Shown here: positions 1-25,653 of the stretch, piece by piece
Numbering within the stretch: position 1 is the stretch's first letter
Layout of the letters: every line of letters begins with the position of its first letter
Source of the DNA: an uncultured archaeon
GTDB lineage: Archaea > Asgardarchaeota > Lokiarchaeia > Sigyniarchaeales > SOKP01
Length of the DNA stretch: 52,509 nt
Assembly (NCBI GenBank): GCA_964388035.1
Contig: CAYLZE010000001.1
Span: 95,325-147,833, forward strand
Reading direction: 5' to 3'
Translations under genes and position numbers: made by a program
Notes under the pieces: model-generated
What the model was told of the DNA's origin: nothing
Seen by the model: the letters and a program-made list of their open reading frames with translations, nothing else
Database searches by the model: none

Positions 1-192
1 TACCAAGAAGCCCAGGGAATTTTAAATTTTTGAACCATTTAATTCACTCATTTTTAGAATAGTTAACAAATTGTATTTTAAAAAATGAAATTCTCTTTAA
101 AATTAATAATTGACTGCTAAAATGTAATTCTATATTATTGTTATGGAGCTGACAACATTTAAACATTATGGTAAAATCAATAAAATCAATCC

Positions 193-2121: not shown

Positions 2122-2940
2122 TTATTCCCCCCAGTTTTTCTGTCCAGCAATATCTACTGCATTAATTTCAGCATGATGATATCTTTTATTTTTAGTAGTT
2201 TTTCCTTTTCTAATTTGAATAGCTTGAACAGGACAATAATGAATGCACGCGTAACAATAAGTACATTTAATATTTTCTTTCCATTCTGGTTTATCATTAT
2301 TTATTCTTATTTTTCCCGATAAGCACACTCTTTCACACGTTCCGCATCCTTTACATTTTGAATCTGAATAAAAAGTTTTTTCCACGTTGAAAAAACTTGT
2401 TCTTTGATATATCCATGTAATTAATGGAAAGATTAAATGGAATACTAAAAATAATGAAATCGGGTCTTTTTGCATTTGGACTTTCTTATTAATGATAATT
2501 TCTTGAATTGTATCCAATTTCTCTTGTAAATTATGTTCTATTTCCTCGATCTCCTGTTCAGATGGAATTTTAAACATGGGAATATAATTTATCGGCATTT
2601 CGACCGAGAAGGATGCATTAAGAAACTTATTTTTTTTAGCTAGTAATTTATTCATGTCTGAAAAAACTTTAGAGCTACATATTCGTGAGGTTATCGCAAA
2701 TATATAGGATGAGGTACTTACGTCAACTCTTTGGAGAAATTTCTTAACTATATGAGGAAAAGTAAAAGCTTGTATTGGAAAAACAAATCCTATAATTTCT
2801 GCTTTTGTTTCAATACTAGGAAGATCTAATGCACTGATAATTGGTATGAGAGTAGTATTAGGAATTCTCTTTTTCAATTCTCGCGCAATATGAAGGGAAT
2901 TTCCGGTTCCTGAAAAATAATATATTTCGAGGTCTTTCAT
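2122..2940 (-). CDS. EFR1-type flavodoxin-ferredoxin fusion protein
   Basis: N-terminal YFSGTGNS flavodoxin motif; C-terminal CxxCxxCxxxC and CxxCxxCxxxCP 4Fe-4S motifs. Confidence 0.9.
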   Translation of the reverse strand: MKDLEIYYFSGTGNSLHIARELKKRIPNTTLIPIISALDLPSIETKAEIIGFVFPIQAFTFPHIVKKFLQRVDVSTSSYIFAITSRICSSKVFSDMNKLLAKKNKFLNASFSVEMPINYIPMFKIPSEQEIEEIEHNLQEKLDTIQEIIINKKVQMQKDPISLFLVFHLIFPLITWIYQRTSFFNVEKTFYSDSKCKGCGTCERVCLSGKIRINNDKPEWKENIKCTYCYACIHYCPVQAIQIRKGKTTKNKRYHHAEINAVDIAGQKNWGE

Positions 2941-3137
2941 GTGAATTTTCCAAATATATTAATATCTCATTATAAATCTATATTTGGAATTCTTTAATAT
3001 TTATTACAGAATGATTAATGTTAATTAAGAGTGACCTTTTTGCTCTTATTCTATGTTATTGTGAACTTAAATCGCGTGTAATTTATGATAAATGCATGGA
3101 ATTCTTTTATAGATGCGAATATGTTTTTATAATAGAT

Positions 3138-3419
3138 ATGACTAAAAAGATTAATATAAAATTACCTATTGATTTGCTTGAATTAACTGGCCTTAGTTCT
3201 GAACGATTAGAAGAAAAAAGTCTTTTAATCTGGGTGTTAGAGTTATATTCAGAAGGTAAGATTACTCTTTTTAAAGCAGCAAATTTAGCTCACTTAAAAG
3301 TTGATAATTTTTTATCTGAATTTAAAAGGTGGCACCTAAAGCATATTGGATGCTCAGAAAATCTCCAACAAGCACAAAACGATCAAGATGTAATTCATAA
3401 CTTAATTAAAGATCAATGA
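3138..3419 (+). CDS. UPF0175-family predicted antitoxin
   Basis: LELYSEGKITLFKAANLA HTH pattern; in-frame ATG 3138 preferred over ORF-track start 3018; stop overlaps next ATG (ATGA). Confidence 0.75.
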   Translation: MTKKINIKLPIDLLELTGLSSERLEEKSLLIWVLELYSEGKITLFKAANLAHLKVDNFLSEFKRWHLKHIGCSENLQQAQNDQDVIHNLIKDQ

Positions 3420-3873
3420 TCATGATAATTCTTGATAATAGTATATATTGAGTGCCTTTTCATATCTTGAACTTTTACCTTCATTAGAAAAACTTCTTAA
3501 ATCAGCGCTTATTACAAAAGAAATGCAAAACGATTATTCGATTGGCTGGCTACAATCTATTCCTAACGGGATATAAAAATATAGGAGACAGATAATATTG
3601 ATTTAAAAAATATTCCTTTATCATTGAGTTCAGTATATTGAGTCTCATTAGGTTAGCGTTAGAACATAATATGCCTCTAACCTCAGATGATAGACCTTTA
3701 AGAAATTACGCAAAAAGACTTCAGCTCTCAATTACAGGTTCACTTGGATTATTGAAAACCCTATATCAAAAGAAAATAATTAAAACTAAGGAAAAATATA
3801 CTTATTATTTTCAGAAACTTCAAGATATCGATATATATCTGATGAACTTAGGAAATGGGCATTAGAAGATTAA
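3416..3873 (+). pseudogene. DUF3368-like PIN-domain toxin pseudogene
   Basis: MIMIILDNS(fs)ILSAFSYLELL...; C-terminal part LALEHNMPLTSDDRPLRNYAKRLQLSITGSLGLL (ORF 3638-3865); several frameshifts, some in AT dinucleotide runs (about 3442-3448 and 3831-3838). Confidence 0.8.
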
Positions 3874-4095
3874 ATATAATTCTTCCTCATATTTGACGAA
3901 TTAACCATTGTGCTACAATTACTTTGATTAACATGTTAATGATATCTCATGCTATATATATTTATTTATTAAAATAAGAGTAAATCAATTGAGGCCCACT
4001 TATAACTCGTTGTTATTACTGTGACAATCTATCCCAATATTTTTATGGATTTTAACATTATATAGAATTAATAATCAATAACCAAAGAAAAATTA

Positions 4096-4383
4096 ATGAT
4101 GTCTTCAAAAAATAAATACATAATAATGAACAATCAAGATAATTGTGCGACCACATTGGATGATCTTCCTCAAGGAGAAACACTAAATATTCGGGGAAAT
4201 ACTATTGTATTGAATCAACCCATAGCTCTGGGACATAAACTTGCCTTGGAGGATATACCCTCGGGAAAGTTAGTATACAAATATGGTCAAATCATCGGAA
4301 TTACGACAAAAGCAATCCAGAAAGGAGAGTGGATTCACATTCATAATCTAAAAAGCCATTATTTGGAGATGGTTTCCAAATGA
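4096..4383 (+). CDS. UxaA-family dehydratase small (SAF-domain) subunit, SuyA/altronate dehydratase-like
   Basis: DNCAT...GHKLALEDI...KYGQIIG...IQKGEWIHIHN SAF signature; ATGA overlap with the large subunit. Confidence 0.9.
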   Translation: MMSSKNKYIIMNNQDNCATTLDDLPQGETLNIRGNTIVLNQPIALGHKLALEDIPSGKLVYKYGQIIGITTKAIQKGEWIHIHNLKSHYLEMVSK

Positions 4384-5558
4384 CAGAAGAATTTATGGGG
4401 TATGCGCGCCCTAAAGGAATGGTGGGAATTCGAAATAAGATAGGTATAATGGCCAGCGTGTCATGTGTAGATTTTGTGGTAGAAAAGATTGCTCGAGGTG
4501 TTGAAAATTCCGTTGCTATTACCCATCCTCTTGGTTGCGGTCAATTTGGGCAAGATCTTACCAATGTTCAGCGTACCTTAGTAGGGCTTGGATCTAATCC
4601 TAATCTTTATGGCGTGCTCATCGTTGGACTTGGTTGTGAGAACTTGAAGAGCGATTATCTGGCTAAAAACATTAAGCGAACGAAAAAACCAGTAGAACAT
4701 TTTGATTTACAAGATGTCAACGGAGGGGAGCCGGTGGCTGTTGAAAAAGGAATAAAAATCGCCAAGCAGATGACCGCAGAGGCTAAGGAGTTGAAAAGAG
4801 AGCCATTTGATTTTTCTCATTTAATTTTAGGATTGGAATGTGGGGGTTCCGATTCTATTTCTGGAATAACCGCAAATCCAGCAGTAGGCGTGGTATCGGA
4901 TAAAATAGTTAAATATGGAGGCACGAGCATCCTGCCTGAATTCACGGAATGGATTGGGACGGAGCATCTTCTCATGAAAAGGGCAATAAGTGAAAAAGTG
5001 GCAAGGCAGATCGAGCTTCCTATTAAACGGCTGTTGGAACGCACCATGGAAATAGGCGTGGATTTTAGAGGTTCCCAGCCCACTCCTGGAAATATTGAAG
5101 GAGGCTTAACTACTATTGAAGAAAAATCCCTCGGAACAACCGCAAAATCGGGGAAATCTCCCATCAGTGGAGTAATTAATTATTCCCAAAAACCTAAAAG
5201 GAAAGGGCTTTGGCTAATGGTGGAACCCGGGAATGATATTGAATCAATGACGGGGCTGGCTGCAGCCGGAGCTCAAATAATAACGATGACTACAGGGAGA
5301 GGCACTCCGACAGGAAATCCAATTGCTCCGGTGATAAAGTTATGCGGTAATCCTCACACTTGCGACTGGTTAAAAGTGCATATTGATGTTGATGCAAGTA
5401 AGATTATCACGGAAAATAAATCAGTAGAAAATGTGGGTGAAATATTATGGCAAGATGTCAAAGCAACATGTAATGGGAAATTAACTAAAGCAGAGTTGTT
5501 TGGACATTATAATATTGCAATTTGGAGGCACTTAGCATTTCCATTTTCCCTGGTTTAA
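4380..5558 (+). CDS. UxaA-family dehydratase large subunit (altronate/galactarate dehydratase or sulfolactate sulfo-lyase SuyB-like)
   Basis: GIRN, HPLGC, GLGCE, LECGGSD..SG.TANP, GN..GGLTTIEEKSLG and TTGRG motifs. Confidence 0.92.
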   Translation: MTEEFMGYARPKGMVGIRNKIGIMASVSCVDFVVEKIARGVENSVAITHPLGCGQFGQDLTNVQRTLVGLGSNPNLYGVLIVGLGCENLKSDYLAKNIKRTKKPVEHFDLQDVNGGEPVAVEKGIKIAKQMTAEAKELKREPFDFSHLILGLECGGSDSISGITANPAVGVVSDKIVKYGGTSILPEFTEWIGTEHLLMKRAISEKVARQIELPIKRLLERTMEIGVDFRGSQPTPGNIEGGLTTIEEKSLGTTAKSGKSPISGVINYSQKPKRKGLWLMVEPGNDIESMTGLAAAGAQIITMTTGRGTPTGNPIAPVIKLCGNPHTCDWLKVHIDVDASKIITENKSVENVGEILWQDVKATCNGKLTKAELFGHYNIAIWRHLAFPFSLV

Positions 5559-5618
5559 CTTTATTAATATAACATTGAAATTATTATAATTAATTAATAA
5601 AAATGTAGGTGAAAATAC

Positions 5619-6560
5619 ACGTTAGAAAAAATTTTCGGTATAATACCTCCTATTATTACACCTCTCAAGGAGGATGAGAGTATCGATGAAGAGGGTCTTC
5701 GAGCAGTGGTTGATTTTCTTGTCAAGTATGGGGCTTCAGGAATTTTTGTGAATGGCACGGCAGGAGAATTTCCTTATCTATCGGTAAAAGAACGAGTTTC
5801 AGTGACAAGAATTGTTAAGGATCAAGTTCGCTCTAAAGTTTGCGTGTTAATGGGAGTTTCTGATGTATCACTAAAAAGAACCCTGAAATTAGTCGATCAT
5901 GGCGTGGAATTAGGCGTGGATGGTTTCGTTACCACATTTCCTCAATATTTTTCGCTAGATTCCAATGATATTAGATTAATCTTAACTCAAATTCATGATA
6001 GAATCCCCGATAAGCCAGTTTTAGCTTATGACGTGAGTAGTGTAGTACCCACCACAGCAAGCCTGAATCCAAAATTGATTATAGAACTAGCAAATGCGAA
6101 AATTCTTCTAGGGTTGAAATATACTGGAGCTGATTGGGAAAATTATGCCTCTATTATCCTTAATGGATTGAATAATCGAGATTTTTTTAGATTATTTGCA
6201 GGTTCAGAAGCACTAACTAGAAAGATATATGAAGAGGGCTATCAATTTGATGGAGGGATCTACTCTGGATCAAATATCTTTCCACGACTTTATCGTGATT
6301 ATTATGAAGCAATGAAATGCAAGGATGAACCATTAATTTCAAAAACTCTCGGGCTCTTGTTCCTTTCAGGGGGTATTTTTGGAACAGTTCCCCCTTCAAG
6401 CGGACCTGGGCTGATAAAAGAAATATTAACTAAACTAGGGCTTCCCATCTCGTCAAAAGTACATTCGCCCTTGCCCCCTATTAAAGATAGGATTTTCAAG
6501 AAAATTGATAAATTGCTTGAAACTATTGAAAATGCGGGTTATTTGGATAAATATGATTAA
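5619..6560 (+). CDS. DHDPS/NAL-family class I aldolase (KDG-aldolase-like); start probably at ACG 5619
   Basis: GIIPPIITP lies in frame upstream of the ORF-track GTG 5706; GTAGEF, conserved Tyr (AYDV) and Schiff-base Lys (GLKYT). Confidence 0.85.
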   Translation, partial: TLEKIFGIIPPIITPLKEDESIDEEGLRAVVDFLVKYGASGIFVNGTAGEFPYLSVKERVSVTRIVKDQVRSKVCVLMGVSDVSLKRTLKLVDHGVELGVDGFVTTFPQYFSLDSNDIRLILTQIHDRIPDKPVLAYDVSSVVPTTASLNPKLIIELANAKILLGLKYTGADWENYASIILNGLNNRDFFRLFAGSEALTRKIYEEGYQFDGGIYSGSNIFPRLYRDYYEAMKCKDEPLISKTLGLLFLSGGIFGTVPPSSGPGLIKEILTKLGLPISSKVHSPLPPIKDRIFKKIDKLLETIENAGYLDKYD

Positions 6561-6600
6561 TTTTATTTATTCTACTTAAAATTTAATTTAAGCTTGTTAA

Positions 6601-8283
6601 ATGATGATTAAGATGACCGAAAAAGAAGTAGATATAAAAGAAAGAAGTAAAAGTATTTTTGAGCCAATCAAGAACACTCCCAACTATTTTGGTCCATATG
6701 GTGTTTGGAGAGGGGTAGGCTTGGAAGAAAAAGAAATTGATAAAAAGCCATTAGTAGCAATTGCGAACACGTGGAGTGATTTCAACCCCGGACATCGGCA
6801 TCTTCGACAAATTTCTGAAGGTGTAAGATGGGGAATACTTGAAGCCGGAGGCATTCCCATGGAATTTAATACCATTGCCCCTTGTGATGGCATAGCCCAA
6901 GGTAATGAGGGAATGAGATACATTCTCCTCCAAAGAGATCTCATTGCAGATTCTATTGAAGCCACGCTTGAAGCCCACCGCTTGGATGCTATGGTGACTT
7001 TATCCTCTTGTGATAAGATTAATCCTGCTGTCTTGATGGCGGCAGCTCGCTTGAATATTCCCACAATTTGCATTCCGGGAGGACCGGGGATGATGCAGAT
7101 CGAATTTAGTCCCAATTATAAGGGATTATATCATCATGATTATGAACGACCCGATGACGTTTTTGCTTGTCATACTTGTGAGACCCAAGGAGCTTGCGGG
7201 TACATGGGTACGGCTAATTCTATGCAATGTCTTGCTGAAGCTCTAGGAATGACAATGCCCAATGCTGCGACAATTCCTGCAGTAAGTGAATATAAATATA
7301 TCATTGCGAAGCACTCCGGGAGACAAATTATAGAGCTACTTAAAAAAGGAATCAAACCCTCGGATATCCTCACCCAGGAAGCATTGGAAAATGCTATCAT
7401 GGTGGATATGGCCATCGGAGGTTCCACGAATGTTGCGCTACATTTACCTGCTATAGCTCAAGAGTTAGGAATTGATTTAGACCTTGAACTCTTCAACAAG
7501 TATAGTAAAATTATTCCCATGATTGCAAATGTTCAACCCAGTGGCGTTTATTCTATTACCGATCTTTATGGAGCTGGGGGCATACCCGCTGTCATGAAAC
7601 GAATAGAAAAATTTCTTCACTTGGATTGTCTCACCGTGTCTGGAAAAACGTGGAAGCAGTTATTGCGCAGGATTAAATTCCAAGAAGAGGAAATAATTAG
7701 ACCTTTAGCGAATCCCATTTTTCCCGAAGGAGGAACCGTCATACTGAAAGGTAATCTTGCTCCTAATGGTGCGGTTATAAAGCAATCGGGTATAAAGGAT
7801 AAAAAGATGTTAAATTTCACGGGGGAAGCGATGGTATTTGATTCTCATCATGAAGCGGTTCAAGCTCTCACCCGAAATGAAATAAAAAATGGACACGTGG
7901 TAATCATTCGATATGAAGGGCCTAAAGGCGCGCCAGGGATGCCCGAGAATCAAGCCTTCGGTGAATTACTTAATGTGCGCAAGGATATCACGGATGTGGC
8001 AATGATTACGGATGGTAGATTTTCAGGAGCTACCTTCGGACCTGTCATTGGTCATGTTTCTCCAGAAGCATACGTTGGAGGACCCATTGCCATCATAGAG
8101 AATGGAGATACGATTAAGATTGATATCCCAAATAGAACAATGGATGTTTCACTCTCTGATGAAACCATTAAAAAAAGACTAGAAAAATGGCATCCTATTG
8201 AACATGAGGTTAAGAGCAAAGTCCTAAAACGGTATCGCATGCTCGTTACTTCTGCCGATAAGGGTGCGGTCTTAAAATGTTAA
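6601..8283 (+). CDS. IlvD/Edd-family dihydroxy-acid / sugar-acid dehydratase
   Basis: PGH, CDG, CDK, GACxxMGTANSM, GGSTN, YEGPKGAPGMPE, TDGRFSG and GHVSPEA motifs. Confidence 0.93.
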   Translation: MMIKMTEKEVDIKERSKSIFEPIKNTPNYFGPYGVWRGVGLEEKEIDKKPLVAIANTWSDFNPGHRHLRQISEGVRWGILEAGGIPMEFNTIAPCDGIAQGNEGMRYILLQRDLIADSIEATLEAHRLDAMVTLSSCDKINPAVLMAAARLNIPTICIPGGPGMMQIEFSPNYKGLYHHDYERPDDVFACHTCETQGACGYMGTANSMQCLAEALGMTMPNAATIPAVSEYKYIIAKHSGRQIIELLKKGIKPSDILTQEALENAIMVDMAIGGSTNVALHLPAIAQELGIDLDLELFNKYSKIIPMIANVQPSGVYSITDLYGAGGIPAVMKRIEKFLHLDCLTVSGKTWKQLLRRIKFQEEEIIRPLANPIFPEGGTVILKGNLAPNGAVIKQSGIKDKKMLNFTGEAMVFDSHHEAVQALTRNEIKNGHVVIIRYEGPKGAPGMPENQAFGELLNVRKDITDVAMITDGRFSGATFGPVIGHVSPEAYVGGPIAIIENGDTIKIDIPNRTMDVSLSDETIKKRLEKWHPIEHEVKSKVLKRYRMLVTSADKGAVLKC

Positions 8284-8488
8284 AGCAAGGGTTCCTATTT
8301 ATTTTTTTTCTTTATCTAAGTAATGTTTCCCTTTCTATTAGTAAACTATTAAGAATTTTTATTTAATTAAACAACTTTTAAAAAAATAATCTTAAATAGA
8401 ATTTTGTATGATTTTTACTTGTACTAAAATTATCAATGAAAATTCTAAAAATAAAAATTAAAAACTTATAAAAAGGTGTGGAATAAGA

Positions 8489-9247
8489 ATGAAGGAATCC
8501 GGTGAGATGGAGCTAGTAAAACCCGGAGTATCCTGGAGACATTTAGTGGTTACTGCTTTAGCTACGGGAGTAGCAACAATATTAGCAATATATGCGGTCA
8601 TTGCTGCCCCAGTAGCTCCTTTTCCGGGGGTTTCAGGGTTATATCTCGCAGCTGCGGTGTACGTACCTCTTAGTCTTTGGCTAGGTATTTGGGGTGTTCT
8701 TGCTGGTTATATTTCATGTATAATTCTAGGTTTTATTTCAGGATTCGGAGTTTGGAGCTTTTACTGGGCTTTAGCAGATTTATTTGAAGGATTAGTACCA
8801 CTTTTAGTGTTCAGGATTGCGAGAGCTGACGTAGATATAGGAAAAGATTTGAAACATCCTAAAGAATTATACTTATTATTAGGGGTATTAGTTATTAATC
8901 TAATTGTTTCTGCCGTTGCAACTGCCTTGGTGTTATCTATCTTATGGATTATTACCTTGATCATTACAATTGGTCTTTTAATTGCAATGTACGCACTTAA
9001 TCCCTCAAAATCTTGGCTACTCTATGTTATTTTTGGAGTATTTGGCGCAGCATTAGTTTCTGCATTATTTGGAATCTCCGGACTCGTTTTAGCGGGATTC
9101 GCTCCTATAGAAGCCTTCTGGGTAGGAGTAATTGGATGGTTTGCTGGAGACCTAATTGTGCTCTCAGCAATTGCTACTCCTATGATGGTATCTCTCACGG
9201 GAAGATTAAAAGAAACTTCCGTATTTGTAGAGAAGTGGTTTTCTTGA
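8489..9247 (+). CDS. Putative ECF substrate-binding (S) component, MASE1-like multi-TM protein
   Basis: Highly hydrophobic; AxxxA in TM1 (ATGVA/ATILA); C-terminal WFAGD...TP; first gene before ecfT and ecfA. Confidence 0.65.
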   Translation: MKESGEMELVKPGVSWRHLVVTALATGVATILAIYAVIAAPVAPFPGVSGLYLAAAVYVPLSLWLGIWGVLAGYISCIILGFISGFGVWSFYWALADLFEGLVPLLVFRIARADVDIGKDLKHPKELYLLLGVLVINLIVSAVATALVLSILWIITLIITIGLLIAMYALNPSKSWLLYVIFGVFGAALVSALFGISGLVLAGFAPIEAFWVGVIGWFAGDLIVLSAIATPMMVSLTGRLKETSVFVEKWFS

Positions 9248-9272
9248 CAATAATTAATTATAAATTAGTAAG

Positions 9273-10145
9273 GTGAGAAGAGTTTCAACTCTTTCTAAAA
9301 CTTTTTTTTCTTATATCCCATCCAATAGCGTGATGGCAAAAACCCATCCCGTTGTAAAAATAGCGATGACATTAATTTTAAGTATAAGCGCCTTTTTCTT
9401 AACTAATTTTCTGGATTTAATCGCCCTCTTGATATTTGATATCCTTCTCATCCTCATTACTAAAATTCCTGTATTTTCAAAGAAATTTAGAAAAATTCTC
9501 ATTGCTTTCTTTTTCATGAATGTATCTATTTTTATTGCGTGGTGTTTCTTTTCCCAACGTCCCGGAAATATTGTTTTTTACCAAAGAACTATCGAGTTAA
9601 TCAAAAATAAATGGACGTGGCATATTCTTATTACTGAAAACACGCTCCAATCGGCGGCTACCATCTCTTTAAGAGCAATCATCATGTTCTTGTTGATGCT
9701 GTTTTTTTTCGTGAGCGTATCTGATCGCGATTTAATTTATGGATTGAGATCGATTAAAATTCCATTTGCCCTCTGTTTAATGATTAATTTGACCTTCCGT
9801 GGATTATCAATGTTTCAACAAGAATATTCGATTGTGAAAGAAGCAATGATGACGAGGGGGGTTGAATTTAAGAAAGTCTCTCTTACCAAACGGATTAGCA
9901 ATTTTGTTTCCATCTTCATGGCTTTAATTGTGCTCATGTTCAAAAAAACAGAGGACATGTCGAATTCTATTGAGGCTAGAGGCATACCTTTTCGTTCTAA
10001 AAATAGGACAATATATCAATATTATCCCTTAACCAAGAAAGATTATGTAAGTCTTGTTATATTGTTTCTTTTCCTATCCCTGACTATTTGTCTGAGAATT
10101 ATTAATCAAAACTTGATATTAACTTTAATTAGTTTAGTGGTGTGA
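9273..10145 (+). CDS. ecfT: ECF transporter transmembrane T component
   Basis: HPVVK N-terminus, two XRG coupling motifs (MTRG, EARG), CbiQ/EcfT layout. Confidence 0.9.
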   Translation: MRRVSTLSKTFFSYIPSNSVMAKTHPVVKIAMTLILSISAFFLTNFLDLIALLIFDILLILITKIPVFSKKFRKILIAFFFMNVSIFIAWCFFSQRPGNIVFYQRTIELIKNKWTWHILITENTLQSAATISLRAIIMFLLMLFFFVSVSDRDLIYGLRSIKIPFALCLMINLTFRGLSMFQQEYSIVKEAMMTRGVEFKKVSLTKRISNFVSIFMALIVLMFKKTEDMSNSIEARGIPFRSKNRTIYQYYPLTKKDYVSLVILFLFLSLTICLRIINQNLILTLISLVV

Positions 10146-11689
10146 ATCTCGTGGTTCCAATCATCAAGATAACAGGTTTTAACTGGAAATATAAAGCTTC
10201 TCAAGATTTGGTACTTAAAAATATTAACTTGGAGATAAATAAAGGGGAATTTATTGGGATCATGGGTCCCACCGGGGCGGGAAAATCCACGTTATGCCAT
10301 TGCATGAATGGATTAATTCCGTTGCGAACTCGAGGATGGATAAAAGGAACCGTGGAACTCTTTGGAAAAAATACCCGGAAAGCCAAGATGACGGAATTAG
10401 GGCAAAGAGTTGGTATTGTATTTCAAGATCCCGAAACGCAATTCATCATGATGTCTGTTGAAGATGAAATTGCTTTAGGATTAGAAACGTTAGGGTTAAA
10501 GCGAAATGAAATCAAAGAACGGATTGAATGGGCTTTAAAGCTCGTGGATCTTGAGGGATATGAGCAAAAAGCGCCTGATGAGCTTTCGGGGGGGCAAAAA
10601 CAAAGGATCGCAATGGCTTCTATCATGGCAATGCGTCCCGAAATTTTGATCTTAGATGAACCCACCTCTGATTTAGATCCCGAGGGAAAAAAGGAAGTAT
10701 TTGAACTATTAGAGGTAATTAGAGAAAAGTTTGATATAACCATAATATTGGTGAGTCATGAAACCCAGAAAGTTGTAGATTTTTGCGATCGTGTCATTCT
10801 TCTTGATGAAGGAATGATAAAATTTGATGGCCCCACCCAGGATTTTATTAAAAAGGAAGATTTACTAAAATCCACAGGAATCGGTATTCCTTCCCAGTTG
10901 ACCCATGAATATTACTCACAAACTCATAAAACGTTTAATATTCAGCAAGTCGCACGGAATAGAATACCCGTGATAGAAATTAAAAATCTGAATTTCACTT
11001 ATCCCAACCTGACACGAGCGTTGAAAAACATAAATCTGACTCTCTATCAAGGGGATTTTGTTGCAATCATTGGCAGAAATGGATCGGGAAAAACTACTCT
11101 TATAAAGCATTTTAACGGGCTCTTAAAACCGCAAGAAGGAAGCGTGTTTTTAAATAATAAATCAATTACCGAATATTCCATCCCTGAAATCGCCCAAAAT
11201 GTCGGATATTGTTATCAAAATCCCGATCATCAACTTTTTAAAAATACCGTTAAAGAGGAAATCGAATTTGGATTGAAAAATCTTCATGTTCCCGATGAAG
11301 AAATAAAAATACGATATGAAAAAATTGTAGAGTTATTGGGTTTAGCTAAATTTGAAAAAGATTACTCCTCCACACTTTATCTCAGTAAAGGCATCCGACA
11401 ACGCTTAGCATTGGCATCCGTATTGGTTTTAGAACCGAATATTCTAATCATCGATGAGCCCGCCACAGGGCAAGATTATAAATTGATTAAAAGTTCCATG
11501 CAAATTCTTGAAGATTTAAATGAAAAAAACAAAACCATAATCATTGTCACTCATAACCCATTTATCATTTCAAATTATTCGCGAGAAGTAATCGTATTAC
11601 ACGACGGAAAACTCATCGCAAAAGTACCCACGATGGACTTTTTAAAAGATGCTAAACTGCAAAAAATTGCTTGTTTCACTCCTCTCTAA
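10142..11689 (+). CDS. ecfA: ECF transporter fused tandem ATPase (A-A')
   Basis: Two Walker A motifs (GPTGAGKS, GRNGSGKT), Q-loops FQDPETQ/YQNPDHQ, signatures LSGGQ/LSKG, two DEP Walker B motifs. Confidence 0.95.
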   Translation: MNLVVPIIKITGFNWKYKASQDLVLKNINLEINKGEFIGIMGPTGAGKSTLCHCMNGLIPLRTRGWIKGTVELFGKNTRKAKMTELGQRVGIVFQDPETQFIMMSVEDEIALGLETLGLKRNEIKERIEWALKLVDLEGYEQKAPDELSGGQKQRIAMASIMAMRPEILILDEPTSDLDPEGKKEVFELLEVIREKFDITIILVSHETQKVVDFCDRVILLDEGMIKFDGPTQDFIKKEDLLKSTGIGIPSQLTHEYYSQTHKTFNIQQVARNRIPVIEIKNLNFTYPNLTRALKNINLTLYQGDFVAIIGRNGSGKTTLIKHFNGLLKPQEGSVFLNNKSITEYSIPEIAQNVGYCYQNPDHQLFKNTVKEEIEFGLKNLHVPDEEIKIRYEKIVELLGLAKFEKDYSSTLYLSKGIRQRLALASVLVLEPNILIIDEPATGQDYKLIKSSMQILEDLNEKNKTIIIVTHNPFIISNYSREVIVLHDGKLIAKVPTMDFLKDAKLQKIACFTPL

Positions 11690-12136: not shown

Positions 12137-12562
12137 TCAATCCTCTATGATTGGCAAGATGGCATTACCGGGGCAATCCTTAAAGCACTTTAAACATTTA
12201 AAGCACTTTGCTAAGTCTTCTATTCGAAATTGTATCCTCTCCTCCCCGCCCTCTTTATCCTTACCTAAATAAAACAATCCTTGAAAGCAAAATCCCTCTT
12301 TTAAGCAGAGATTACAGTGTTGGCACTTTTCTTGATCAACCGTAAATCCTTTTAAGGTGCCTTCTTCAATCGAAATCACCTCAAGGGCACCGTGCTCGCA
12401 CACATCCACGCATTTCAAGCAACCTTCACATTTTTCATAGTCCACATAGCGAAGGGAATCTTTGAAAAATATGGCTTTAGGAGAACAACTGTACACGCAG
12501 CGCTGGCATCTCACGCATAGACTTGGATTGATGCTAATGGGAAACAGTTTTTCTGATTTCAT
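12137..12562 (-). CDS. Polyferredoxin (four 4Fe-4S motifs)
   Basis: CVRCQRCVYSC, CEGCLKCVDVC, CQHCNLC-x5-C and CFKCLKCFKDCP. Confidence 0.9.
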   Translation of the reverse strand: MKSEKLFPISINPSLCVRCQRCVYSCSPKAIFFKDSLRYVDYEKCEGCLKCVDVCEHGALEVISIEEGTLKGFTVDQEKCQHCNLCLKEGFCFQGLFYLGKDKEGGEERIQFRIEDLAKCFKCLKCFKDCPGNAILPIIED

Positions 12563-14610: not shown

Positions 14611-15993
14611 CTACTTGAGTATTTTCAATTGATTCTCGTGGATTTTCTCGGGTGTAAGATTGTAGAATTTATAGAAGATGATTAATCCGATGATCATTGC
14701 TATTATTGGAATGAGTGCCAAGTGCACGTGAATTCCCCACTGTGCTAAGGGTGTCTGAACGGAAGCTCCTTCCACGAAACCGGTCATGATATGCACCGTG
14801 GCGAAACTTAAGGCTTGCACGACAATTGCTAGTCTTGAAAAAAACTGTTGAAATCCATTGTATATCCCTTCCTTTCGCTCGCCCGTCCTGACGACGGACT
14901 CGTCAATGACATCTGCAAGAATTACAGGCTGAATCATCCAGAAGGCGCCAAGAGGGATGCCCCATAGAATCATTGAGAGCAAAAATCCTAGGTAAGTATT
15001 AGTAAAGATCATGGGTGTTGTTAATGCCGTGAGCATCGCGCCCGTTATAATGGCGAGCTTGCGATTATCATTTAATTTATGCATCACTTTTACCCAAACA
15101 GGAGTAAATACAAGGACAGATATTAAAAACCCTGCCATGATAAAGGTAACGGCACTCGCTTCCATTTTTAGAATGAAGTTCACCGCATAGGGCAGCGAAG
15201 CTGTCATGGATCTTATCATTACTTGATAGCATAGCAAGAGGATAATGAATACCACGAAACTCCGTTGTTTGAGAGCTTTTCTAAGCTCACCGAAGAAGGA
15301 AACCCTTTTTACTTGTTTTTGCATGCCTAAATATTCTGTAATTCTTTCTTTTTCCTCCTTGCATCCCGGAAGGCATAAAGCGACTGCTATACCGCCAATA
15401 GCCGCGACCACCCAAGCTTGTATGAGATAGGATTTTAGATCCCCGAAAATTATCAATAAGGGAGGAATGATGGCGCCAAATGCGGATCCGAAAACACCAA
15501 TAAATATGCTAAAGCCCGTAGCCGTCCTTCTTTCCTTTAGGGCCCGGAACTTATCCGGAAACAAAGACGAATAATTAACCCACATGATAGAGGCGAATGT
15601 ATCAAACAAGCAAATCGTACCTACTAACCATATAAAGAGGATAAAAGCATCGGTCTTAGGATCCACTACTGGCGGGTTAAAGATTAATACATAGGACAAG
15701 ACATAAGGAAATCCCCCTAAAATGATCCACGGAAATCTTCTTCCCCATTTTTTAGTAAACTTAAAAGGGCGTTCCGTTAAATAGCCAACCAAGGGGTCAT
15801 TTACTGCATTCCAGATGGCATAAATAACATAGCCGATTCCAACTAACCAGGAGTTTAGTCCGATCTCTGCTTCATAATAATAAAAAGTAAAAGCGCTGAA
15901 TGCCATGGCCATGAATTCATTAACTAGCGTTCCAAAACCGTAGGAAGCCATGTTTAAATTGGAGTGCTTTATAAGTATCTCTTCATCTTTCAT
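14611..15993 (-). CDS. MFS transporter, GPH (MelB-like glycoside-pentoside-hexuronide) family
   Basis: WNAVNDPLVG, WGRRFPW, ADVID...GERKEG.Y motifs; about 12 TM. Confidence 0.92.
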   Translation of the reverse strand: MKDEEILIKHSNLNMASYGFGTLVNEFMAMAFSAFTFYYYEAEIGLNSWLVGIGYVIYAIWNAVNDPLVGYLTERPFKFTKKWGRRFPWIILGGFPYVLSYVLIFNPPVVDPKTDAFILFIWLVGTICLFDTFASIMWVNYSSLFPDKFRALKERRTATGFSIFIGVFGSAFGAIIPPLLIIFGDLKSYLIQAWVVAAIGGIAVALCLPGCKEEKERITEYLGMQKQVKRVSFFGELRKALKQRSFVVFIILLLCYQVMIRSMTASLPYAVNFILKMEASAVTFIMAGFLISVLVFTPVWVKVMHKLNDNRKLAIITGAMLTALTTPMIFTNTYLGFLLSMILWGIPLGAFWMIQPVILADVIDESVVRTGERKEGIYNGFQQFFSRLAIVVQALSFATVHIMTGFVEGASVQTPLAQWGIHVHLALIPIIAMIIGLIIFYKFYNLTPEKIHENQLKILK

Positions 15994-18859: not shown

Positions 18860-19780
18860 TCAAAATTTATTAAATCTTGGGAATAAAGCAATAGCATTAT
18901 CATGTTCAATAATAATTCGATCTTGAGCGTTTAACCTATTAAAACTTTCAAATTCTTTAATCATGCTCATTGTAACGGGTTCAGGAGCAAAGGGATAATC
19001 CGTACCGAAAAGAACGTGTCTTGACTCGACTAATTACAAGAGTGAATTGAGAGAATATGGCGTTGCGGCAAGGGCAATATCGTAATAGAGGTGTTTTAAA
19101 AGATTAATTATCTTTTTGTTGCCAAACGATATTCTCCATGTTAAATAGGGAATTGTTCCACCTCCATGAGCAAAAATGAATCTGATATTTGGATATCGTT
19201 TGATGGCACCACCATGAATCAAGTTAGCAACAGCCCGCGTGGTATCAAAAACAAATTCTAATATGGCCGGACGGAAATTTGTCATCGTTAATTTATCAGC
19301 AGGAGGAATGTTGGGATGAACAAAAACAACCGCATTTCTTTGATTTAACTCGTTTAAAACGTCGTTGAATTTGGGATCACCTAAATACGTTCCATCGATA
19401 TTTGTTAGCATTACTATTCCGTCTAACATCAATGTATCTAGTGCGTAAGTTATTTTCTCTAATGATGCTTTAATATCTGGCATGGGCAAAACAGCAAATG
19501 CTCCAAATCGTTGGGGATACTCTTTTACCAAGCGGGCTGAATATTCATTGCATTTGCGCGCAAGATTTTTTGAAAAATCTAAATCACCAAAATATATCCC
19601 AGGAGCTGAAATGGAGGTAATTGCTATCTTAATCCCGTGTCGATCCATGAGTTCAATACTCTTTTCTGGAGTCCAACTTGGAAAAGGTTCCCCCACTGCA
19701 GTCTTAATGCCAACACCAGCAAGAGCTGTAAGATACTCTGCCGGAACGATATGGTGATGAACGTCAATTCGGTCTAACAT
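18860..19780 (-). pseudogene. Amidohydrolase_2 (ACMSD/aromatic decarboxylase-like) with internal TAA
   Basis: IDVHHH, FVHP, DTTRA, AHGGG; TAA at 19036-19034 is followed in frame by LVESRHVLFGTDYPF...HDNAIALFPRFNKF up to TGA 18860. Confidence 0.85.
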
Positions 19781-20079: not shown

Positions 20080-21573
20080 TCAAATCTTTGATACACTCAG
20101 ATCTACGATTTGAAGTCCTAATAATTTTGCTCCTATTATGAATTCTTCCTTCCAATCTCCGATAAAAGAAACTCTATGCCATCCAAATGTTTCCCAATCA
20201 TAATTTTGCATTATCGTTTTTACATTACTCTTCACCAGCATTTTTGAGACACACCCTCCATCATTGATAATATTATCTATTATTTTTCCCGTGCGAAGTT
20301 CCATTTTCTTATTGAACATGCTTATTTTAATGGTAGTGACGGTCTCTCCGATGGGAAATTTCACGCGGGGACAAGCACCTATATAATGGGATTCGCCATG
20401 GTAAACGATGTCATAATCGCCCAATTGAGTGGTATCTCCAAAGTAATCTATGGGTGCCACACAGTGCATATAAGTGATAGTTCCATTGATCATATCGAAT
20501 GTATGGTTTGAAACATATCCTGGTCTCCCCGTGATGGTTAATCCATAAATGAAACTAATTAAAGAGTCCATATCGGATTCACACGTACCAAAGACTCCTT
20601 CCATGTAAAGTTGCATGAAGGCTAAGCAAGGATACGCAGGAATTTTGCCACTAAGGAGAAAGGAACCGCAATCTGGGCTAAAATATTTAATACCCTTGTC
20701 TTTCAATAGCTTTTTAAACGCTAAATATAATCTTGCGGAATTTATAACAGTATTTTCTGAAGGTTCGCTTTTCAGAGCATTCTTTACCCATATTTCTGCG
20801 ATTTTTTCAGCTTCTTTTTTATCTATTTCATCATAATAAGTTAAAATTTCATCAGGCTCTTCCTTAATCATCTCCATTCCAAACACTTGTTTAACGTTTT
20901 GCTTATAAAGCACCTCATTTCTTCTCCATTGATGCGCTTGGTCATTCCCTACTGTGTCGGTATAGAATTCAAACTCTTTATCCGTACTCTTGCTGATGAG
21001 TTCTTGTAGGACTTCAGGATGATTTTTCATTAAAATCTTTCTTTCGGGATTAAGTAATCCTAATACTCTATCCCAATTAATGGAATAATCATCACTTACA
21101 TAGACCAAAACCTTTTCTCCTTTCAGTTGCAATAGATTACACATTACTCCGATCGGTTTGTCAAACATTTCATTATTGAGGGATGAAATTAGTTGAAGTG
21201 GGTAATTTTTATCCTTAAGCAAAGCCATGATTTTGGTAAAAGTATGATCCCCGGCATAAATTAAATTGGCCAAAACAACGGGCTTTCCCATTTCTATGAG
21301 TTCCACTCCCGCCGTTATCAATCCGGGATCTCCATAATGACCTATCGTGAAGATTATCATGCCATCTGATTGTTTTATCCCACTTTTAATTTTGTTAACT
21401 TGATCCTTATTGTAAGTATAGATTAAGTCATTAGATATGAAATCAATTCCGGGAAATTTCTCCTTCACATGAGTCAATAATTTCTGAATAATTTCGTCAT
21501 TATCATGACCCAAATAAGGCCATCCTGCCTCCCATTGACTTTTTCCAATGAATATAACTTGAATTTTTACCAT
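20080..21573 (-). CDS. L-fucose/L-arabinose isomerase-like protein
   Basis: PCLA, CESD, HCVAP and GWHRV motifs typical of FucI-like C-terminal domains. Confidence 0.75.
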   Translation of the reverse strand: MVKIQVIFIGKSQWEAGWPYLGHDNDEIIQKLLTHVKEKFPGIDFISNDLIYTYNKDQVNKIKSGIKQSDGMIIFTIGHYGDPGLITAGVELIEMGKPVVLANLIYAGDHTFTKIMALLKDKNYPLQLISSLNNEMFDKPIGVMCNLLQLKGEKVLVYVSDDYSINWDRVLGLLNPERKILMKNHPEVLQELISKSTDKEFEFYTDTVGNDQAHQWRRNEVLYKQNVKQVFGMEMIKEEPDEILTYYDEIDKKEAEKIAEIWVKNALKSEPSENTVINSARLYLAFKKLLKDKGIKYFSPDCGSFLLSGKIPAYPCLAFMQLYMEGVFGTCESDMDSLISFIYGLTITGRPGYVSNHTFDMINGTITYMHCVAPIDYFGDTTQLGDYDIVYHGESHYIGACPRVKFPIGETVTTIKISMFNKKMELRTGKIIDNIINDGGCVSKMLVKSNVKTIMQNYDWETFGWHRVSFIGDWKEEFIIGAKLLGLQIVDLSVSKI

Positions 21574-23117: not shown

Positions 23118-24509
23118 ATGGAAGTGGAAATAGAAGCAGACAATGTATCAAATCTTTCTATCGTGTCTTATGGGATGGCAGATTTCAATTTCGAAATTTT
23201 TAATGGAATCTATGGTGCTTTTTTCTTTATCTTTTGGGAAACTGAAATTGGTTTAAATGTATGGCTGGTTGCCTTAGCATATACGATTTATGCCATCTGG
23301 AACGCTGTGAACGACCCCCTAGTTGGTTATTTTGAAGATCGTCCTAATCGATTATGGAAGCGCTATGGAAAACGGTTTCCATTCGTATTAATCGGAGGTG
23401 TACCCGCATTACTTACCTTAGCCGCTATTTTTAGCCCACCTTACTTAGATCCGGTGAGTGGCGCTTGGATATATTTTGTCTGGATTTTGCTTTTTGCTTG
23501 TTCTTATGAATTCTTTTTTACTCTCATAGCATTAAGCCATTCCGCCCTATATCCCGATAAATTTCGAATGGATAATGAGAGACGTAAAGTGGGTGCCATT
23601 CAAATGGCACTAGGTCTCGGGGGAACAACAGTAGGATTCATACTTCCGCCATTTTTCATTACTTATGGAGATAGAGCTTCTTACATGAGCATGGCATGGA
23701 TCTTTGCATTGATCGGGGGCGTCATATTTCTTTCAATGCTTCCAGGTCATCGAGAATCTCAAAAAATGAAAGACCGTTATATCTTGGAGCAACAAAATCC
23801 TGAAAGATTATCTTTTATTCAAGCATTCAAAATTATTCTAAGTCGAAAGAATTTTATCGTAGTCTTATTGGTGCTTTTCATGGACGCCATCATCGGAGCG
23901 TCACTTACGGGGTCTATCCACTATGTCACAAAATATATTTTGGAAGAACCCGCAGAAATGGCAACCCTTGTTCTTGCGGGATTTATAATAGGAGCGTTAG
24001 GTTCCATCTGGCCGTGGCTGATCTTATCAAATAAAATGAAAAATCACCGGAGAATGCTAATTATAGGGGTCTTTTTAAATACGATATTCTTGTTACCTTT
24101 CATGTTCGCTCATACACTTATTGCTTTTGTGATATCAGCACTTTTACTTGGCATTGGTGGTGGGGCTCTGAGGGTCGGGAGGAATCCAGTTTTTGCGGAC
24201 ACGGTGGATGAAACAACATTAAAGTCGGGCCAACACGTGGAAGGGGCTTTTATGGGCGTATACACGTTCTTTATGCGGTTTGCGCTCATTGCACAAGGCT
24301 ACATATTCGCAATCGTGCATCAACTCACGGGATTTAATCCCGATGCGGAGCATCAAACAGAATTGGCAAAATTCGGGATCTTATTGCATACGGCTTTTAT
24401 ACCCATGATTCTTTGTCTCATCGGTTTAATTGTGTTTGTCTTGGTATATAATCTCACTCCTGAGAGAACAAAACAAATAAAAGAAGAATTAAAGCAAAAA
24501 AAATTATAA
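23118..24509 (+). CDS. MFS transporter, GPH family
   Basis: WNAVNDPLVG, YGKRFPF and ADTVDE...EG motifs; paralog of 14611-15993. Confidence 0.92.
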   Translation: MEVEIEADNVSNLSIVSYGMADFNFEIFNGIYGAFFFIFWETEIGLNVWLVALAYTIYAIWNAVNDPLVGYFEDRPNRLWKRYGKRFPFVLIGGVPALLTLAAIFSPPYLDPVSGAWIYFVWILLFACSYEFFFTLIALSHSALYPDKFRMDNERRKVGAIQMALGLGGTTVGFILPPFFITYGDRASYMSMAWIFALIGGVIFLSMLPGHRESQKMKDRYILEQQNPERLSFIQAFKIILSRKNFIVVLLVLFMDAIIGASLTGSIHYVTKYILEEPAEMATLVLAGFIIGALGSIWPWLILSNKMKNHRRMLIIGVFLNTIFLLPFMFAHTLIAFVISALLLGIGGGALRVGRNPVFADTVDETTLKSGQHVEGAFMGVYTFFMRFALIAQGYIFAIVHQLTGFNPDAEHQTELAKFGILLHTAFIPMILCLIGLIVFVLVYNLTPERTKQIKEELKQKKL

Positions 24510-24783: not shown

Positions 24784-25653
24784 TCAGTTAAAATGCCGTT
24801 GCTCCTTTCCTTGAAGATAATTTTTCATCAAATTTTCTAAATTCTTGGCAAATATCAATCTTTTTTCTTCAGCTGAGATCGGCAGAGCTAACACCTTTTC
24901 TATTTCTATTCGGGCATTTAAACTTGGCATGTCAGTACCGAAGAAAATTCTCTCAACACCAATGTCAGGATCTTTTATGGCTTCAACGAATTTATAAGTA
25001 TAAGGATTACCACACATCTCTAGATAAGAATTCGGACATTTTTTTGCAACCTCAAGAGCGTGGTTCACTTGCGGACATAAACCTGAATGTCCGATTATAA
25101 ATATGGATTCCTCATTCTTCTTTAAAATAGGAAGGATGTTAATAATATCGGAATGACTCCCCGTGTGGGAAAGGATGATAATGTGATTTTTTCCACAAAA
25201 TTCGAAAATCTTCATTAATTCCTCGAAATGAGTGGTGAATCTAAATTTCATGATGTCGGGATGGATCTTAATTCCACATACCTTTTTAATAACAAGTTCT
25301 TCTAAATCTCTTTCTAAGGTTTTAGAATTGGGATTAATGTAACCGAAACCTACCATTCTTTCGGGGCACATTTCATTCATTCTATAACTAAGCTTCCTAT
25401 CCATTTTAAATACGGGCAAACAGACGGCTTTATCGATATGATAATAATCCTGCATTAATCTAAAGAGGTGCACGTTTTTTTCTGTTCTATTTTTAGATAT
25501 GCTTTTAAATCTTTGCCAGTTTGAGAAAATTAAATCCATTATTTCAATAGTTGCCATGTTTTTAAACAAAAATCTAAGAGGGCGGGCTATCAAGTTAGAA
25601 AAATGACTATGCGCATCAAAAAGCACGTATTTCTCATCTTGATGGATTATCAT
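24784..25653 (-). CDS. Amidohydrolase_2-family metal-dependent hydrolase
   Basis: DAHSH, GIKIHP, SHTG, GHSG and FGTDMP motifs. Confidence 0.88.
   Translation of the reverse strand: MIIHQDEKYVLFDAHSHFSNLIARPLRFLFKNMATIEIMDLIFSNWQRFKSISKNRTEKNVHLFRLMQDYYHIDKAVCLPVFKMDRKLSYRMNEMCPERMVGFGYINPNSKTLERDLEELVIKKVCGIKIHPDIMKFRFTTHFEELMKIFEFCGKNHIIILSHTGSHSDIINILPILKKNEESIFIIGHSGLCPQVNHALEVAKKCPNSYLEMCGNPYTYKFVEAIKDPDIGVERIFFGTDMPSLNARIEIEKVLALPISAEEKRLIFAKNLENLMKNYLQGKEQRHFN

Follow-up and report, generated by a model that had tools for sequence, protein, structure and literature searches.

Gene content of the locus

The stretch of DNA analysed here, called the window throughout, comprises 52,509 nucleotides of an uncultured Asgard archaeon of the order Sigyniarchaeales (assembly GCA_964388035.1, contig CAYLZE010000001.1, positions 95,325 to 147,833; G000:C1:95325-147833 in our own numbering). 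The host genome amounts to 5.47 Mb in 211 contigs, and the window DNA is present in salt-marsh metagenomes; close homologues of the encoded proteins carry the label Promethearchaeota (Loki-type Asgard) in public databases. Our subject is a run of seven genes on the forward strand (Table 1): the small SAF-domain and the large subunit of a split UxaA/GarD-family dehydratase, a class I aldolase, an IlvD/Edd-family dehydratase and, after an AT-rich spacer, the S, T and fused A-A' components of an energy-coupling factor (ECF) transporter.

An initial annotation made from the sequence had described seven co-directional genes, a complete ECF transporter and the lack of a kinase. Open reading frame (ORF) listing combined with Pfam and NCBIfam scans confirms the seven genes and their shared direction, the S, T and fused A-A' genes are all there, and no sugar or glycerate kinase family was found among the approximately 38 window ORFs scanned (about nine small ORFs lay outside the scan; the statements below on the gene families of the window refer to the same set). 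Independent Logan contigs from two salt-marsh runs match the window letter for letter over positions 5495-5829 and bridge the junction between the IlvD and S genes at 8178-8765, so neither the start of the aldolase gene nor this junction is an artefact of this metagenome-assembled genome (MAG) alone.

Table 1. Features of the window discussed in the text (positions counted from the first base of the window)
Feature	Position	Strand	Support or remark
LarA-like gene (2-hydroxyacid racemase/epimerase family), first 38 bases	1..38	-	remainder upstream, G000:C1:94280-95362
SAF-domain small subunit, split UxaA/GarD-family dehydratase	4096..4383	+	PF08666 39.3 bits
UxaA/GarD-family large subunit, Cys-bearing dehydratase type	4380..5558	+	GD_AH_second 133 bits, GD_AH_C 299 bits
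DHDPS/NAL-family class I aldolase	5619..6560	+	PF00701 104 bits
IlvD/Edd-family dehydratase, probable accessory DHAD-like paralogue	6601..8283	+	ILVD_EDD_N 390 bits, ILV_EDD_C 238 bits
AT-rich spacer, 205 bp, T8 run at 8302-8309	8284..8488		sequence
Predicted ECF S component, unnamed archaeal family, 252 aa	8489..9247	+	fold match; no Pfam/NCBIfam match
EcfT (CbiQ family) transmembrane coupling subunit	9273..10145	+	PF02361 78 bits
Fused EcfA-EcfA' double ATPase	10142..11689	+	TIGR04521 454 bits, TIGR04520 452 bits, each above cut-off
2x[4Fe-4S] ferredoxin	12137..12562	-	Fer4 Pfam matches
MFS_2 / GPH-family symporter	14611..15993	-	PF13347 209 bits; TIGR00792 gph 135 bits, below cut-off

Two dehydratases, an aldolase and their recurrence

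The SAF and UxaA genes overlap by 4 bp. The SAF protein covers positions 2-78 of the galactarate dehydratase model and, together with the GD_AH_second and GD_AH_C domains of the large subunit, completes the domain set of the UxaA/GarD superfamily (COG2721), with SAF carried here as a separate subunit. Against E. coli GarD (PDB 6u7l) the large subunit aligns at 199 bits over GarD residues 123-515, and its C29, C53, C86 and C154 pair Cys-to-Cys with GarD at matching spacing. Watanabe et al. 2019 (PMC6336799) placed UxaA, GarD, D-idonate dehydratase, D-arabinonate dehydratase, a heteromeric L-fuconate dehydratase (by gene context) and the heteromeric sulfo-lyase SuyAB in one superfamily, and described four Cys, proposed iron ligands (Cys134/173/208/276 of C785_RS13685), that are conserved in all members except SuyB. 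The last interval is 68 residues there as it is here. These four positions are invariant in 10 Asgard UxaA copies and present in 106 of 116 relatives; the ten relatives that do not have three of the four are alphaproteobacterial or haloarchaeal and stand in other clades of our tree of 116 large subunits. The haloarchaeal ones, at the loci L264 (Haloferax volcanii pHV3 382694-401839), L234, L238, L245, L246, L252 and L254, are in most cases followed by a SAF gene and a second UxaA-family gene, and the pHV3 cluster is surrounded by Gfo/Idh/MocA, enolase-superfamily, DHDPS-family, GH4 and MFS genes.

Four Asgard UxaA copies are linked to an aldolase gene: those of the window, of G302 (the only other genome of the genus) and of G319 and G210:C3 (another genus of the same family). 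They form one clade (SH-aLRT 99) inside the Asgard family clade, and since they are nested in this way the gene is native to this lineage, with the aldolase-linked copies as a subtype of their own. A recent transfer from bacteria was considered and rejected on the same ground. A second SAF+UxaA pair of the host genome, on contig C30 and 69% identical, has its UxaA placed elsewhere in the tree, outside the aldolase-linked clade. Several Asgard genomes have SAF+UxaA pairs in a second setting that has no aldolase: at L079 (11152-12631), L080, L084, L175 and L176 SAF+UxaA come after RidA and a D-serine-dehydratase-like gene (Ala_racemase_N + D-ser_dehydrat) on the same strand, often with an aldehyde:ferredoxin oxidoreductase (AOR) gene in between and, in one genus, with a core-type IlvD 1.3 kb away.

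The aldolase belongs to the DHDPS/NAL class I (Schiff-base) family, its motifs GTAGE, AYDVS and GLKYT, which follow the family patterns GxxGE, Y(D/N)xx and GxK (with the Schiff-base Lys), being invariant among five orthologues and paralogues. The host genome encodes a second aldolase (48% identical). E. coli YagE is among its nearest solved relatives (88 bits). YagE is a 2-keto-3-deoxy-xylonate/galactonate aldolase whose gene lies beside those of the IlvD/Edd-family xylonate dehydratase YagF and the symporter YagG of the GPH (glycoside-pentoside-hexuronide) family. The model of archaeal 2-keto-3-deoxygluconate (KDG) aldolases is matched at 42 bits, against a cut-off of 390.

The gene has no canonical start codon. 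The ORF as listed, 5706-6560, begins at an internal GTG, and the conserved N-terminus (LEKIFGIIPPIITP...) runs from 5619, where the window has ACG and four orthologues and paralogues, which open MLEKI or MLDKI, have Met. There is no ATG, GTG or TTG in this frame between the stop at 5610 and position 5706, a GGTGA motif lies 6 nt upstream of the ACG, and two independent contig sets back the sequence. We considered a frameshift or a sequencing error as the cause and rejected both, since the orthologous start aligns in frame and the contig sets agree. A similar case was seen in the AOR orthologue of the host genome, with ATA (C1:89795) at the place of the orthologues' Met, 6 nt after a GGTGA/GAGGTGA Shine-Dalgarno-like motif (C1:89780-89800). 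Near-cognate start codons may be used in this lineage, or the aldolase and AOR genes may be decaying.

The fourth enzyme carries the IlvD/Edd-family Cys motifs for the Fe-S cluster, APCDG (C95), SSCDK (C137) and ACGYMGTANSM (C199), and the catalytic Ser in TDGRFSG. Its affinities are to dihydroxy-acid dehydratase (DHAD): it scores 619.6 bits to TIGR00110 (borderline, cut-off 618.15) and 627 versus 644 for NF002068, as compared with 451 for the L-arabinonate dehydratase model, 260 for Edd (cut-off 708) and 247 for YjhG/YagF (cut-off 808). The solved structures closest to it are true DHADs (409-380 bits), then L-arabinonate dehydratase (357). The host genome has three more IlvD genes, on C3 (61% identical to the window copy), C54 (58%) and C107 (approximately 44-45%). 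Across 71 genomes of the taxonomic family, IlvD falls into a core clade, 43-48% identical to the window copy, mostly single-copy and found in nearly all genomes with a match, and a second clade of 58-76% identity that is patchy and often multi-copy. The C107 gene belongs to the former; it scores 646.8 bits to TIGR00110, fits DHAD models best and has an acetolactate-synthase-like gene 3 kb away. The latter clade includes the window copy, which is 75-76% identical to its counterparts in the syntenic clusters of G210 and G319. Near the ketol-acid reductoisomerase (KARI) genes on C4 there is neither the window IlvD nor any of its paralogues. Judged by its clade, the window gene derives from DHADs and is an accessory paralogue with a catabolic setting, not the core copy of the genome. 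The initial annotation had named a grouping with branched-chain DHADs as a sign against its catabolic proposal; the likeness to DHADs is real by profile score, but the copy sits in the accessory clade and not with the core gene.

Could the enzyme nonetheless be an extra biosynthetic DHAD that stands beside the aldolase by accident? The TIGR00110 cut-off is just reached and the closest structures are DHADs, both as this explanation would have it. We regard it as very unlikely: C107 carries a core copy that scores better and is near-universal, the window copy has no KARI gene in its vicinity (those are on C4), G210 and G319 share the aldolase-IlvD pair, and in distant phyla IlvD stands beside UxaA.

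This conservation extends to a larger set of genes. At G210:C3 and G319:C329 the SAF and UxaA genes are divergent from a series AOR, aldolase (54-58% identical to that of the window), IlvD and MFS_2, and the G210 cluster also has esterase, LarA-like, TrmB-domain and GH172 (DUF2961) genes; no ECF genes were found at either enzyme locus. The host genome has counterparts directly upstream of the window (C1:88268-95362), where an MFS_2 gene (C1:88268-89773) abuts the AOR orthologue (62%) and is accompanied by TrmB-like (42%) and LarA-like genes. The AOR gene is located 8 kb upstream of the enzyme unit. The LarA-like gene, whose first 38 bases reach into the window, is 68% identical to that of G210:C3, which has the Pfam domain Lar_N and NCBIfam LarAH matches below their cut-offs.

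Beyond the family, 80 UxaA loci from across prokaryotes were surveyed. A separate SAF gene is present at 70, short-chain dehydrogenase/reductase (SDR) genes at 15, IlvD at 11, DHDPS-like genes at nine, LarA-like genes at five and AOR at four. A Syntrophaceae MAG (L182) combines a CUT1 sugar ABC transporter, IlvD, SAF, UxaA, a ferredoxin, AOR and an aldolase, and UxaA, IlvD and aldolase occur together in a Methanomethylicia MAG (L190) and a Megasphaera MAG (L215). The Syntrophaceae ferredoxin, located between UxaA and AOR, has 141 aa, as does the window ferredoxin (12137-12562); the latter is a possible electron acceptor for the pathway AOR.

Taken as families and by their recurrence, the four enzymes form a kinase-free module of two dehydratases and an aldolase, of sugar-acid type, much as the initial annotation had proposed in speaking of a two-dehydratase aldonate funnel. 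Outside the genus the recurrent set adjoins MFS_2/GPH or sugar ABC transporters and never the ECF set. The MFS_2 gene at 14611-15993 has a 75% identical orthologue at the same position in G302, and in G210 and G319 an MFS_2 gene follows IlvD directly; judged by this synteny, the MFS_2 genes at 14611-15993 and C1:88268-89773 are the likeliest importers for the module.

The alternative of an archaeal sulfo-Entner-Doudoroff and desulfonation route was also raised by the initial annotation. Here IlvD would be a 6-sulfogluconate dehydratase, the aldolase would cleave the resulting 2-keto-3-deoxy-6-sulfogluconate (KDSG) and SAF+UxaA would act as SuyAB, the (R)-sulfolactate sulfo-lyase, with which the window enzyme shares COG2721, a small and a large subunit and Fe(II) dependence. 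GPH-family transporters are nearby, AOR could replace sulfolactaldehyde dehydrogenase, and archaea have no sulfoquinovose (SQ) pathway characterised so far (PMC12890257). Most of the evidence points elsewhere. All four Cys that SuyB is reported not to have (PMC6336799; a comparison made with the published description of SuyB) are present in the window protein, and relatives devoid of them stand in other clades, one alphaproteobacterial and one haloarchaeal. The split layout, which had been taken as pointing to SuyAB, gives no such pointer because it is the norm in the clade (70/80 loci). The IlvD protein scores 620 bits to the DHAD model versus 260 to the Edd model, and sulfoquinovosidase, SQ dehydrogenase, sulfite-handling and other sulfonate-related families did not turn up among the window ORFs scanned with Pfam. 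We consider this route highly improbable.

A different arrangement of the same enzymes would place the two dehydratases in series: IlvD and the aldolase would yield pyruvate and glyceraldehyde, AOR would oxidise the latter to glycerate, and SAF+UxaA would convert what AOR delivers, be it glycerate or a different short 2,3-dihydroxy acid, to pyruvate by dehydration. No gene is found beside SAF/UxaA in Asgard archaea more often than AOR, also at loci with neither aldolase nor IlvD (L007, L081, L085, L175, L176, L177, L263), SAF/UxaA follow RidA and D-serine-dehydratase-like genes, enzymes that make pyruvate from a C3 compound, in several genomes, no kinase was found among the ORFs scanned, and the family member SuyAB performs an analogous elimination on 3-sulfolactate. 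Against this, dehydration of glycerate is not known for any UxaA/GarD member, the substrates of those characterised being C5-C6 acids (PMC6336799), and removal of an aldehyde product or oxidation of a sugar would explain the co-location of AOR equally well. We consider the serial route rather unlikely. To a similar, small degree we entertain that an IlvD-type dehydratase, a class I aldolase, AOR and a split SAF+UxaA could make up a natural kinase-free, ATP-neutral route from a hexonate to two pyruvates. To our knowledge, such a minimal route has so far only been assembled artificially.

The ECF transporter and its neighbourhoods

The initial annotation had called the first gene of the transporter S-like, and its predicted fold bears this out. 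An AlphaFold model built on 24 homologues (pLDDT 89) was compared with solved structures by VIA-align, and the top 15 matches are all ECF S components (Z 17.4-9.3): HmpT/PdxU2 (4hzu_S) is the best, with Z 17.4 and a root-mean-square deviation of 2.7 over 162 residues, and RibU, PanT, BioY, FolT and ThiT follow at Z 14.4-12.5. A Foldseek search of the PDB with the same model returned nothing at E <= 0.001; BioY and ThiT reached probabilities of 0.99-1.00, yet with E of 0.06-0.2. The protein matches no Pfam or NCBIfam family, the curated S-family models (BioY, ThiT, RibU, QueT and others) included, and in a protein atlas its clusters are unnamed, labelled MASE1 or called "ECF S component", with QueT at 0.88 as a lead only. 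It has 252 aa, compared with 155-207 aa in solved vitamin-type S components, and extra helices at approximately 124-170. A large protein collection holds 142 homologues, from Asgard lineages, Bathyarchaeia and Methanocella, and the source names shown are all "hypothetical" or "membrane protein of unknown function". On the strength of the model, the protein has the six-helix S fold and adds a new and longer member to the S components with this fold, from an uncharacterised archaeal family.

The remaining components are conventional. EcfT has the two Arg motifs (TFRGLS and EARGIP) expected of an ECF transporter and is encoded with its EcfA/A' ATPases, and the fused EcfA-A' comprises two complete nucleotide-binding domains with two Walker A/B sets, the second signature motif being degenerate (LSKGI). 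A predicted S-T complex speaks weakly for binding of S to T: it scored 0.38 and the best control 0.00, with runs agreeing on at least 68% of contacts and a partner pLDDT of at least 72, but similar complexes have been solved, and the score may stem from the predictor having learned them. Of 80 solved complexes 58 attain the score mark used here, and of 110 mismatched pairs 2 do so; at values of 0.60 or below these numbers are only 7 of the 80 and both mismatches. The window system resembles group I ECF transporters (BioMNY, CbiMNQO) and those with solved S components in the joint encoding of S, T and A-A', the S fold, the two EcfT Arg motifs and the fused ATPase; it differs from the solved S components in the greater length and extra helices of its S protein and in the position of the latter outside the Pfam and NCBIfam S families.

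The initial annotation had further suggested that the ECF system feeds the enzymes, and proposed their joint synteny across Asgard and other archaea as a check. The S gene was found in 18 of 301 sampled genomes of the phylum (8 of 68 in the same family), and S, T and A-A' are together at 10 of 12 Asgard loci fetched, with neighbours that vary by genus: YjbQ, an enoyl-CoA-hydratase-family gene and a 2-oxoacid:ferredoxin oxidoreductase in one, SDRs and MFS_2 in a second and an M20 peptidase in a third. SAF, UxaA, aldolase and IlvD are absent within approximately 10 kb of all 10 S-T-AA' loci from other Asgard genera, enzyme homologues from all 80 metagenome loci with an S homologue, and S or T homologues from all 80 UxaA loci across prokaryotes. 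The suggested coupling is not borne out by these comparisons: in relatives the ECF set lies in unrelated neighbourhoods, which the initial annotation itself had named as contrary to its proposal.

The sole exception is G302, where the order on contig C56 is again a divergent LarA-like gene, UxaA (77%), aldolase (59%), S (85%), T (74%) and AA' (71%), with a convergent MFS_2 gene (75%) and no IlvD. Because only this genome of the same genus repeats the order of enzymes and ECF genes, their adjacency is, as far as gene order tells, a trait of the genus that was inherited once, and the two genomes reflect shared ancestry and not independent evidence. At this G302 locus (L262, G302:C56:9000-28999) a 224-bp AT-rich gap (8251-8474) precedes UxaA, with no SAF gene and no tblastn match.

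The sequence between the two gene groups suggests that the ECF genes are transcribed separately from the enzymes. A T8 run begins 19 nt after the IlvD stop, and approximately 170 bp upstream of S align between the window and G302 despite a different preceding gene, with T-runs directly after the upstream stop in both; the spacer 8284-8488 is likely to contain a terminator and the promoter of the ECF unit. In the window intergenic regions no palindrome was found upstream of either unit, and no 11-mer other than AT-only ones is common to their upstream regions. A scan for sigma-70 promoters and hairpin terminators, a type ill-suited to archaea, gave fewer sites than shuffled sequences.

Import of the module substrate, or of a related sugar acid, by the ECF system of this genus would be an unusual, bulk-carbon role for such a transporter. 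In its favour, both genomes of the genus have the genes side by side and in one direction, other genera have the ECF set in catabolic neighbourhoods (MFS_2, SDR, GH172), and no vitamin has been assigned to the S family. Outside the genus, however, the genes are not adjacent, and both the orthologous cluster of G210 and G319 and the Syntrophaceae analogue use MFS_2 or ABC transporters. The S gene is mostly solitary in longer Bathyarchaeia-like contigs, in the manner of S components that share an energising module; the T-run and conserved region before S, and the lack of any palindrome or non-AT-only 11-mer linking the upstream regions of the two units, likewise speak for separate units. We regard the coupling as quite unlikely.

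Further observations concern the ECF genes in other genomes. A GH172/DUF2961 gene stands approximately 90 bp after EcfAA' on the same strand at L043 (G246:C39, 5655-6722) and is 71% identical to that of the G210 enzyme cluster; the host genome has six GH172 copies and the adjacency in G246 may be chance. At L039 (G156:C75) tandem S genes (2490-3242 and 3493-4251; 73% and 62% identical to the window S) precede a single EcfT/EcfAA' pair. In the Bathyarchaeia-like contigs L115-L165, S (approximately 40-48% identical) is mostly solitary within a conserved block of small genes, and for most of the longer ones no T or AA' homologue was found in the available flank, a layout like that of S components sharing one energising module. 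An S homologue of G240:C182 (L023/L044, approximately 20468-21112; 52% identical) has two in-frame stops and no T or AA' within approximately 10 kb, and is probably a pseudogene.

A probable sugar-acid module beside a probably independent importer

From the gene identities, folds, synteny and conserved residues described above we infer substrates, step order and transcription units as follows. It seems reasonably probable that the locus holds two separate units, a non-phosphorylative sugar-acid module served by GPH-type transporters and, beside it, an independent ECF importer. In the first unit (4096-8283) the Fe-dependent split SAF+UxaA, the Fe-S IlvD-type enzyme or both, most likely each for a different sugar-acid configuration, would turn an aldonate or deoxy-aldonate into a 2-keto-3-deoxy acid by dehydration. 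The DHDPS-type class I aldolase would then cleave this acid to pyruvate and a short aldehyde (lactaldehyde, glycolaldehyde or glyceraldehyde), to be oxidised by the AOR encoded 8 kb upstream. The LarA-like epimerase and the TrmB-like regulator are part of the same conserved set, and uptake would most likely proceed via a GPH-type MFS_2 symporter. The second unit (8489-11689) would be a self-contained importer in the style of group I, probably with its own promoter, for a small molecule unrelated to the enzymes.

Several observations weigh against this division. In G302 the ECF set again comes directly after the aldolase gene, at 59-85% protein identity, and the adjacency is not a one-off. In other genera it is often near MFS_2, SDR, enoyl-CoA-hydratase-family and GH172 genes; since no vitamin-salvage gene is consistently near these ECF sets, a catabolic ECF substrate keeps some plausibility. 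The four-gene unit has no sugar dehydrogenase or lactonase, and parts of the module may be decaying, since the aldolase has no canonical start and the UxaA of G302 no adjacent SAF.

The wider window fits a carbohydrate-type island, its gene families being compatible with carbohydrate or organic-acid use: three MFS_2, four Amidohydro_2, one Gfo/Idh/MocA oxidoreductase, two xylose-isomerase-like TIM barrels, hydrolases and CoA ligases. Amidohydro_2 is the family of several sugar lactonases. The sites in question are 14611-15993, 23118-24509 and 37768-39180, and 19034-19780, 24784-26435 and 35012-35872, with non-metabolic genes in between. An alanine racemase, a Thr/Ser dehydratase and an HpaB-like gene were also observed in the window.

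Among known systems, the split UxaA has counterparts in Paraburkholderia and Campylobacter, whose split genes have been assigned to L-fuconate dehydration on the basis of gene context and of pathway models. Together with the DapA-like Cj0481, the split uxaA' of Campylobacter jejuni (cj0482-0483) has been placed in a non-phosphorylative L-fucose/D-arabinose pathway (PMC6946681, PMC12566272). As far as the available accounts of this fuc locus (cj0480c-cj0490) and of the route-1 L-fucose/D-arabinose pathway of anaerobes (Watanabe 2020) go, they share with the window a UxaA split into N- and C-terminal parts beside a DapA-like aldolase, MFS transporters and kinase-free chemistry with pyruvate and an aldehyde as products, a likeness at the level of gene content. 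Set against the same accounts, the window operon has no dehydrogenase, lactonase or mutarotase, AOR takes the place of an NAD-dependent aldehyde dehydrogenase, and an IlvD paralogue is added.

The gene sets yagE-yagF-yagG(-yagH) and yjhH-yjhG of E. coli comprise a D-xylonate dehydratase (IlvD/Edd), a 2-keto-3-deoxy-xylonate aldolase (DHDPS family) and a GPH symporter. In the window, as there, an IlvD/Edd dehydratase adjoins a DHDPS-type aldolase, and a GPH/MFS_2 transporter and a glycosidase are found in the vicinity; the window IlvD, however, is DHAD-like and not YjhG/YagF-like, and a UxaA-type dehydratase and AOR are added. With the archaeal non-phosphorylative Entner-Doudoroff pathway (Sulfolobus/Thermoproteus) the window set has in common an aldonate dehydratase, an aldolase of the DHDPS family, to which the archaeal KD(P)G (2-keto-3-deoxy-(6-phospho)gluconate) aldolases also belong, and an aldehyde oxidoreductase. 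The dehydratase of the Sulfolobus/Thermoproteus-type branch is from the enolase superfamily, and the window aldolase is weak to the model of the archaeal enzymes, as given above. The enzyme set is a new combination, of UxaA-type and DHAD-type dehydratases with AOR and a LarA-like protein, and not a new kind of system.

Asgard sugar and sugar-acid catabolism is known almost only from gene lists, and a recurrent set common to distant anaerobes gives it concrete enzymes and candidate substrates; the set is defined here as split UxaA, a DHAD-like IlvD paralogue, a DapA-like aldolase, AOR, a LarA-like epimerase and a GPH transporter. At the same time two attractive claims that found no support, an ECF importer for bulk carbon and an archaeal sulfoquinovose pathway, are removed. 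The ligand of the uncharacterised archaeal S family would widen the known range of ECF substrates.

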